In this document: in pieces, positions 23,875 through 25,154 of the stretch | Layout: each line of letters starts with the position of its first letter | How positions within the stretch are numbered: the stretch's first letter is position 1 | DNA from: Escherichia phage Mizar | DNA length: 64,000 bases | Sequence record: PV714129.1 | Reading direction: 5' to 3' (one strand) | Program-made: the position numbers and the translations under genes | The notes under the pieces: generated by a model | Database searches by the model: none | Seen by the model: only the letters and a program-made list of their open reading frames with translations | Told to the model about the DNA's origin: nothing

Positions 23875-24699
23875 TTAACAATTTATAGACCAAGTCCATT
23901 TAGACGAATCTAAAGGAAAGTTTTGAATCGTCCACCACGGCTGCATATCAGTTGGACCTGGGGTTCGCCAGGTATATGGAGTACGTGTTGTCGAGGGGCC
24001 ACCAATTTGATTAGGCCATGCACCTGGACTTGTTGCACCAGATTCTTTAAGCAAATCCGCCAATCGTTTTAAAAGGTCTTCACGATCTGAATCTGAATTA
24101 TTCTTAGGCAGAACCAAACGAGATTCAATATCATCCCATGTGTGTACACGTTGTGCAGTGCGAGGAATATCATCACGTTCACCACGAGCCAACCAATAAA
24201 TCGGTACATTAAGAATTTCTGCCGCATGGTCACAGTGATGAGCTAAATCGTCGACGTAACAAATCACGTTGTATTTTGTTTTAGCTAGTTCGAATAATTG
24301 TTCCTTTGAAGAATCATGACCACACATCATTACTTCAGAGAAAGCGCCTGGGAACAAAGCATTCAAATTAAATTGTCTATTCAATCGAGCATCAATTGAA
24401 TCACCTAGCGCCGTCACGGCTACAAAATTATAGTCTTCTTTTAGTTTATTGATAACTCGAAGAGCATCCGAATAAGGCGCTAAGTAACGAATAAAATCAG
24501 AGCGATTATATTTTTCTATTAATTGTTTACCAAGGTTATCGTCAGTATTGAACAGTTTACCAGGAGAAATAAATTTTTCGTCCTGAATCATTTTTAAAAT
24601 ATGTTCTAATGGAAGATTATATTTTTGGGCAAAATAAGGAAGTCCAGATTGCCAACTTAAACATACACCATCAATATCAGTCAAAATAGTAGGCTTCAT
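23875..24699 (-). CDS. HAD-superfamily hydrolase-like protein with Trp/Pro-rich C-terminal tail
   Basis: 274 aa; motif I DIDGV near N-terminus, later Thr motif and K...DD motif typical of HAD phosphatases; last ~55 aa low complexity. Confidence 0.6.
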   Translation of the reverse strand: MKPTILTDIDGVCLSWQSGLPYFAQKYNLPLEHILKMIQDEKFISPGKLFNTDDNLGKQLIEKYNRSDFIRYLAPYSDALRVINKLKEDYNFVAVTALGDSIDARLNRQFNLNALFPGAFSEVMMCGHDSSKEQLFELAKTKYNVICYVDDLAHHCDHAAEILNVPIYWLARGERDDIPRTAQRVHTWDDIESRLVLPKNNSDSDREDLLKRLADLLKESGATSPGAWPNQIGGPSTTRTPYTWRTPGPTDMQPWWTIQNFPLDSSKWTWSINC

Positions 24700-25154
24700 A
24701 AAGAGTCTCTTAATAGGTTTAACACATCAACAAATTCAGTTTCGGTTAGTATTGTATCATCTTTTGTTAGGTGGCTAGCCATGCTGTGCTTCAAAATTTT
24801 TCCTTTAGAGGCTTGTAAGGCATCACGAAACCCCTTATTTTGGATCGCGGCTTCAAAATATGCATTTGTGTATAATTCTTTCCATGCTTCAGAGTATCTT
24901 GAAAATGGAACTCCTAACCAGAAGAGAGTCCCACGGTCCTGAGCTCTTGCATAAGACCTTCCAGCTTGCTGTGCAGCCAATCCAGACAACCCAAATATAC
25001 GTCTTTGCTGTTCAACATTTTTCACCTTACATCCTTGGAGAAATCCTTCAAGACCTCCGAATTGAATACCATCCATAACAAAAGGCCATTGAGCAAAGTT
25101 ACTTAATGCACATGACGGCCACTTGAAATTACTTCTTATTTCTAATTCAGACAT
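24696..25154 (-). CDS. NADAR (YbiA-like) domain protein
   Basis: 152 aa from ATG at 25152-25154; ALSNFAQWPFVMDGIQF aligns with E. coli YbiA GDFSNFAAWPIKVDGKTW; track ORF starts 3 codons earlier on GTG. Confidence 0.65.
   Translation of the reverse strand: MSELEIRSNFKWPSCALSNFAQWPFVMDGIQFGGLEGFLQGCKVKNVEQQRRIFGLSGLAAQQAGRSYARAQDRGTLFWLGVPFSRYSEAWKELYTNAYFEAAIQNKGFRDALQASKGKILKHSMASHLTKDDTILTETEFVDVLNLLRDSL

Follow-up and report, generated by a model that had tools for sequence, protein, structure and literature searches.

An intact adfN (gene 30.3) orthologue in Escherichia phage Mizar and its predicted role in resistance to DarTG1

The locus described here lies in a 64,000-nucleotide stretch of Escherichia phage Mizar (sequence record PV714129.1), referred to as the window, and comprises an open reading frame at 24696..25154 together with the genes that surround it. 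The first-pass annotation had recognised a NADAR/YbiA-like protein at these positions, within the 30.x early block, and gave no strand; the gene lies on the minus strand. The genes and features of the locus are as follows.

19775..21862, minus strand: Alt-like ADP-ribosyltransferase of 695 aa (PF03496, E=6.6e-28)
21918..22127: 69-aa protein coming after the Alt-like gene, in the alt.1 position, with a match to Pfam PF24647 'Phage blade protein'
22106..23599, minus strand: ATP-dependent DNA ligase, downstream in the adfN run
downstream of the gp30.2-like gene in the same run, minus strand: DUF3045 (gp30.1) gene
23875..24699, minus strand: gp30.2-like protein of 274 aa (phrog_420), its start, MKPTILTDIDGV, being HAD motif I (DIDGV); Pfam HAD_2 at E=0.02, below the cut-off
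24696..25154, minus strand: adfN (gene 30.3) coding sequence, 152 aa plus stop, with ATG start and TGA stop; core-only NADAR domain
25571..25600, minus strand: candidate early sigma-70-type promoter, TTTACA-18-TATAAT, an 11/12 consensus match and the best in the region

The genes of this run are tightly packed on the same strand: the start of the 24696..25154 gene overlaps the stop of an upstream 70-aa gene by 8 nt, while its own stop and the start codon of the gp30.2-like gene share 4 nt (ATGA). The order of genes is that of T4 and RB69, with 30.3 placed between a 30.4-like gene and 30.2, upstream of the ligase and alt. The candidate promoter, identified by consensus match alone in a region where sigma-70-type sites are no more numerous than expected from shuffled sequence, precedes a run of 65-aa, 70-aa, 30.3, 30.2, 30.1 and ligase genes. 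Further upstream, a 214-aa ORF on the minus strand (25601..26245; phrog_17531, E=2e-146), shared with phage 348Ecol098PP, occupies the site of the small 30.5/30.6-type genes of T4, RB69 and p000v and looks like a lineage-specific gene replacement inside the 30.x block. Plus-strand ORFs of 46-72 aa inside adfN were dismissed, as these were without support.

In the ORF listing, the frame can be extended to a GTG three codons upstream of the ATG, which would give a product of 155 aa. In several GenBank entries, as well as in gene calls from metagenomes, gene 30.3 instead begins at the internal Met27, giving 126 aa (phages Ozark, L004 1579..1959, and p000v, L005 3079..3459; proteins P0004-P0006). 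Such a start would remove the invariant ALSNF motif, while the 152-aa start fits the T4 numbering of E36 and K43; the Met27 start appears to be a recurrent annotation error.

The family identity of the product is clear. It matches Pfam PF08010 (Phage_30_3, gp30.3) over the full model (1-138) with 231 bits, the cut-off being 36 (E=4.5e-69), and also PHROG 652, whereas NCBIfam and PADLOC searches with the window protein returned no match. The protein is 95.4% identical to gp30.3 of T4, T2 and T6, which share its length of 152 aa, and 100% identical to the protein of phage p000v. By tblastn, gene 30.3 homologues occur in 1510 phage records, and identical or near-identical full-length alleles are found in hundreds of phages. 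The Pfam match and the 1510 records, together with a dN/dS of 0.06 against T4, place the ORF far above chance, and the product is an orthologue of T4 gp30.3 (AdfN). Furthermore, the 2.8 kb around adfN share 98.8% identity with Escherichia phage LH01 and 96-98% with many Mosigvirus records, and the source of the window can be assigned from its sequence to Mosigvirus, that is, to the RB69-like T-even phages.

Membership of the NADAR superfamily depended on how it was sought. With the window protein alone, the Pfam NADAR model (PF08719) gave no match at E<=1 and phmmer against PDB sequences gave none at E<=10. The family alignment, which comprises 62 full-length homologues of 34-87% identity, behaved differently: 23 of the 62 match PF08719 individually (best E=1.5e-7), and the family profile found E. 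coli YbiA (2B3W) at E=0.007. In the HMMER alignment, the YbiA stretch FSNFAAWPIKVDGKTW is paired with the region of SNFAQWPFVMDGIQF, residues 18-32 of the 152-aa product, and hhalign of the gp30.3 family against YbiA residues 27-124 gave a probability of 94.8% (E=5.3e-8). The signature match to YbiA quoted in the first-pass annotation is therefore the motif that both methods align. A single homologue with a precomputed NADAR match (P0066) showed a weak YbiA match (E=0.04) amid noise. Since the single-protein PF08719 search is blank, the NADAR link requires a family profile or structure methods; had the absence of a NADAR profile match been taken literally as grounds for refutation, as proposed earlier, the NADAR idea would have been wrongly rejected.

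The active-site and signature residues of the protein map to the following positions.

25095..25109, minus strand: codons of the N-terminal NADAR signature A16-L-S-N-F20, invariant in the 62 homologues and aligned to YbiA FSNFA by HMMER and hhalign
25047..25049, minus strand: codon of E36, the catalytic glutamate; invariant column in the 62 homologues, identical in T4, with mutational evidence (PMC11257639)
25026..25028, minus strand: codon of K43, the catalytic or ADP-ribose-binding lysine; invariant column in the 62 homologues, identical in T4, with mutational evidence (PMC11257639)
24786..24788, minus strand: codon of H123, the phage-type histidine at the third catalytic-centre position; invariant in the 62 homologues, right after the last model strand (120-122)
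24699..24743, minus strand: codons of the C-terminal helix, residues 138-152, the segment missing from the RB69 allele; model helix 138-151

The NADAR mechanism and family rules have been described by Schuller et al. 2023 (PMC11543638). The catalytic pair is E43/K50 in the P. nicotianae NADAR and E36/K43 in T4 AdfN (PMC11543638, PMC11257639), while the last-strand position of the catalytic centre is occupied by His in phage NADARs, Glu in the YbiA type and Asp in the DarG1 type (PMC11543638, PMC11125620). In the window protein, the Glu/Lys pair lies seven residues apart as E36/K43, and the histidine of phage NADARs is found as H123. The predicted structure has the alpha+beta fold of YbiA, with a helical core flanked by two small beta-sheets, and His123 stands in place of the YbiA glutamate. 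By profile, predicted fold and active-site residues, the window protein is assigned to the NADAR superfamily. From window to T4, seven differences separate it from T4 AdfN (K11R, E89P, I120V, M125I, H128G, T139A and V142I); these leave E36, K43 and H123 untouched, with three of them falling within five residues of H123.

The first-pass annotation placed the gene among the uncharacterised T4 30.x genes. The position was correct, the gene being 30.3, but the function is already known and was published in 2024-2025; the window gene is an intact adfN orthologue. T4 gene 30.3 is now called adfN, short for anti-DarT factor NADAR (Johannesman et al., bioRxiv 2024, PMC11257639; Nat Commun 2025, PMC11825919). 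Its product is a guanine-specific DNA ADP-ribosylglycohydrolase that is, alone, necessary and sufficient for the escape of T-even phages from DarTG1 (Nat Commun 2025; Toxins 2024); every T-even phage tested was resistant to DarTG1 except RB69, and all RB69 x T2 or T4 recombinants that gained resistance had acquired the 3' part of 30.3 (PMC11257639, PMC11825919). Deletion of adfN in T4 or T2 lowered plaquing on DarTG1 hosts by ~4 logs, whereas AdfN supplied in trans rescued RB69 by ~5 logs, a rescue abolished by E36A and K43A (PMC11257639, PMC11825919). Purified AdfN removed ADP-ribose from DarT1-modified DNA, and AdfN neither bound DarT1 nor countered DarTG2 (PMC11257639, PMC11825919). Independent biochemistry (PMC11125620, PMC11833690, PMC12945103) shows that, in vitro, the T4 NADAR hydrolyses G-ADPr on DNA and not T-ADPr (PMC11125620), and that it also cleaves guanosine-ADP-ribose on RNA, less efficiently than DarG1 (PMC11833690).

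The substrate preference of the T4 enzyme conditions these results. T4 AdfN did not rescue DarT1 toxicity in uninfected cells, which its authors attributed to a preference for hydroxymethylcytosine DNA, and it barely helped phages with unmodified DNA (PMC11257639). Published data indicate that it prefers T-even-type DNA in vivo, glucosylation being dispensable. Two of the experiments that had been proposed for the window gene are represented in the literature on T4 AdfN with different outcomes: expression alone in uninfected E. coli does not rescue DarT toxicity, whereas knockout phage become sensitive to DarTG1.

Taken together, the window gene is very probably a functional orthologue of T4 AdfN, i.e. 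a guanine-specific DNA ADP-ribosylglycohydrolase conferring resistance to DarTG1. From its 95.4% identity to the assayed T4 protein we infer that this allele shares the activity of T4 AdfN and hence that the phage resists DarTG1. AdfN would be made early in infection, within the 30.x/ligase transcription unit. In a DarTG1-carrying host, the DarT1 toxin, once released, would ADP-ribosylate guanines of the phage DNA; AdfN would then cleave the N-glycosidic bond between guanine and ADP-ribose by means of E36, K43 and H123, which would restore replicable DNA and allow the phage to plaque on such hosts. As its target would be the DNA adduct and not the toxin, AdfN may be regarded as an orphan type IV antitoxin. 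The counter-defence role suggested in the first-pass annotation, namely removal of ADP-ribose from DarT-modified guanine, has been demonstrated for the 95%-identical T4 AdfN (PMC11825919, PMC11257639, PMC11125620). The wider protection against DarT-type toxins that it envisaged narrows to DarT1 (guanine), DarT2 (thymidine) being left uncountered.

A variation on this function is conceivable, though unlikely: the Mosigvirus allele could be tuned to arabinosyl-hydroxymethylcytosine DNA, or AdfN could act with the translationally coupled, HAD-like gp30.2, the two jointly disposing of the released ADP-ribose. Tuning might be reflected in the seven differences from T4 AdfN, three of them close to the catalytic H123, and if true would mean that AdfN alleles are matched to the DNA hypermodification of each phage. 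The linkage to gp30.2 was checked in eight distant T4-like phages. Four of these carry a gp30.2 homologue downstream of their 30.3 homologue (Providencia PSTRCR_121, Acinetobacter Berthold, Acinetobacter 133 and Klebsiella phiKp_26, the last with two small genes separating them); the remaining four (Aeromonas AS-zj, Vibrio phi-ST2, Rhizobium P9VFCI and Krischvirus MIZ4) lack it there, 30.3 directly abutting the ligase in Krischvirus. With a gp30.2 homologue following 30.3 in just half of these phages, the linkage looks like inherited synteny; gp30.2 was rejected as an obligatory partner on the same absence and on the sufficiency of AdfN alone in T4. The HAD hydrolase neighbour pointed out by the first-pass annotation thus carries a recognisable motif I, but its Pfam match is sub-threshold and it is not required for function. 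In Vibrio phage phi-ST2, the gp30.2 position is held by a gene annotated as a 5'(3')-deoxyribonucleotidase.

It is very unlikely that the product mainly degrades soluble ADP-ribose derivatives, such as immune signals, toxins (e.g. cADPR variants) or RNA-repair by-products, in place of DNA adducts. Iyer et al. 2022 (PMC9503650) put forward such a role for phage NADARs from their context, and some distant 30.3 homologues do lie near genes of NAD salvage: PRPP synthetase and nicotinamide phosphoribosyltransferase genes are found within a few kb of the homologue in Aeromonas phage AS-zj (L009 3845..6447), and the homologue in Acinetobacter phage Berthold (L007 1..389) is likewise near a NUDIX ADP-ribose pyrophosphatase gene. 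Nevertheless, no NAD-salvage genes adjoin adfN in the window, no soluble substrate has been demonstrated, and the T4 orthologue de-ADP-ribosylates DNA and has a DarTG1 phenotype of 4 logs for which the catalytic residues are needed. These direct experiments on DNA also disfavour the processing of ADP-ribose-derived metabolites that had been offered as an alternative in the first-pass annotation. Distant members of the 30.3 family might have extra or different substrates.

Less probable still is a housekeeping partnership with Alt, in which the product would reverse or edit the modifications made by the phage's own Alt, ModA and ModB or act on ADP-ribosylated RNA. The Alt-like gene (PF03496) lies ~3 kb away on the same strand, the alt-ligase-30.2-30.3 arrangement recurs in Acinetobacter phages, and the T4 NADAR does strip guanosine ADP-ribose from RNA in vitro, with lower efficiency than DarG1 (PMC11833690). 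Against this, Alt-type enzymes target arginine in proteins, a residue not known to be acted on by NADARs; in Slopekvirus, Krischvirus, Vibrio and Rhizobium phages, 30.3 is not linked to alt; and the adfN deletion in T4 has a clear DarTG1-specific phenotype with no defect reported on ordinary hosts (PMC11257639). The Alt gene that the first-pass annotation connected with the NADAR protein is indeed encoded at 19775..21862, but it is protein-modifying, no evidence connects it to AdfN, and in T4/T2 AdfN was both necessary and, by itself, sufficient. Hence neither HAD-like gp30.2 nor Alt is necessary for AdfN function.

That the window copy is an inactive remnant is highly improbable, even though the window derives from a Mosigvirus and the allele of the type phage RB69 is frameshifted and non-functional. 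RB69 gp30.3 is a natural null: an extra T at position 411 of the gene costs the protein its final 15 residues, and the phage is DarTG1-sensitive (PMC11257639). In the DNA alignment, this extra T is present in RB69 and absent from the window and T4, the insertion point falling between window positions 24745 and 24744; in the protein alignment, RB69 ends at residue 137 whereas the window protein runs to the full 152, with residues 138-152 present and predicted helical, and with the catalytic residues intact. Selection argues in the same direction: window and T4 adfN differ by 51 nucleotides and 7 amino-acid changes (dS 0.57, dN 0.034, dN/dS 0.06), and full-length alleles identical or nearly so recur in hundreds of phages. 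Given this dN/dS, and flanking proteins just 44-68% identical to those of T4 (gp30.1 56%, gp30.2 68% and 30.4-like 44%, against 95.4% for AdfN; region 23596..25546), adfN is judged from sequence to be under strong purifying selection. The high conservation of AdfN beside diverged neighbours may reflect unusually strong constraint or, possibly, recent exchange between genera. Tequatrovirus records that match just residues 1-144 were considered as RB69-like truncated alleles and rejected, as the Ozark translation is full-length and the record contains an ambiguous base.

A functional AdfN in Mosigvirus also fits the behaviour of the RB69-like phages Bas46 and Bas47, the closest RB69 relatives tested, which are DarTG1-resistant despite an inactive AdfA allele and which carry intact adfN (PMC11825919); native Mosigvirus activity is in this case deduced from phage phenotype alone. 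The weakest reading, a housekeeping N-glycosidase of the YbiA kind with reactive intermediates of the riboflavin pathway as substrates, shares with E. coli YbiA the fold and N-terminal motif (one GenBank record even reads 'ybiA-like protein') and is practically negligible, as the family-defining last-strand Glu is His in the window protein and all 62 homologues, the phage offers no riboflavin pathway context and the T4 orthologue has been shown to function differently.

With the AdfN orthologue as the preferred reading, the proper name for the window gene is adfN. Because the RB69 frameshift is absent from it, plaques are predicted on E. coli carrying DarTG1, regardless of which AdfA allele the phage has; the AdfA gene (61.2/adfA), whose active form has His164, is located outside the window. 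This prediction adds no new biology, while it helps host-range forecasting for phage therapy candidates. AdfN exemplifies an orphan, antitoxin-like phage enzyme that would repair the chemical damage caused by a defence toxin rather than block the toxin itself.

Among known systems, the window protein most closely parallels T4 AdfN, with which it shares the length of 152 aa, 95.4% identity, genomic position, E36/K43/H123, a core-only NADAR fold and an intact C-terminal helix; it differs by the seven substitutions and by its setting, since the hydroxymethylcytosine of Mosigvirus is arabinosylated and not glucosylated (PMC11257639). With RB69 gp30.3 it shares the genus-level background and 97% identity over residues 1-137, but it lacks the T insertion that truncates the last 15 residues of the RB69 protein. 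E. coli YbiA (2B3W) and the YbiA-family NADARs are more remote (~20% identity), with a last-strand Glu where the window has His123, and the role of YbiA is housekeeping, in the clearance of riboflavin intermediates, as opposed to the phage counter-defence role of AdfN.

DarG1, the BC4488-family NADAR of DarTG1 (e.g. Geobacter lovleyi 8BAT and the E. coli C7 NADAR), is characterised by a beta-beta-alpha extension at the N terminus, which forms a basic groove for DNA binding, and by a last-strand Asp (PMC11543638). In contrast, the window protein is shorter (152 aa against 219 aa in 8bat), begins at the core without this extension and has His at the third catalytic position. Furthermore, it has no adjoining DarT gene, the Pfam, PHROG and PADLOC scans of the adfN neighbours (30.4-like, 30.2-like, 30.1 and ligase) giving no DarT-type match, and T4 AdfN cannot substitute for DarG1 in uninfected cells (PMC11257639). 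Functional counterparts outside the 30.3 family are the Bas32 and Bas60 types, which are likewise stand-alone phage NADARs and have known anti-DarTG1 activity (PMC11257639). These belong to other clades and were independently acquired and, unlike T4 AdfN, they are active in uninfected cells as well as on unmodified DNA (PMC11257639).
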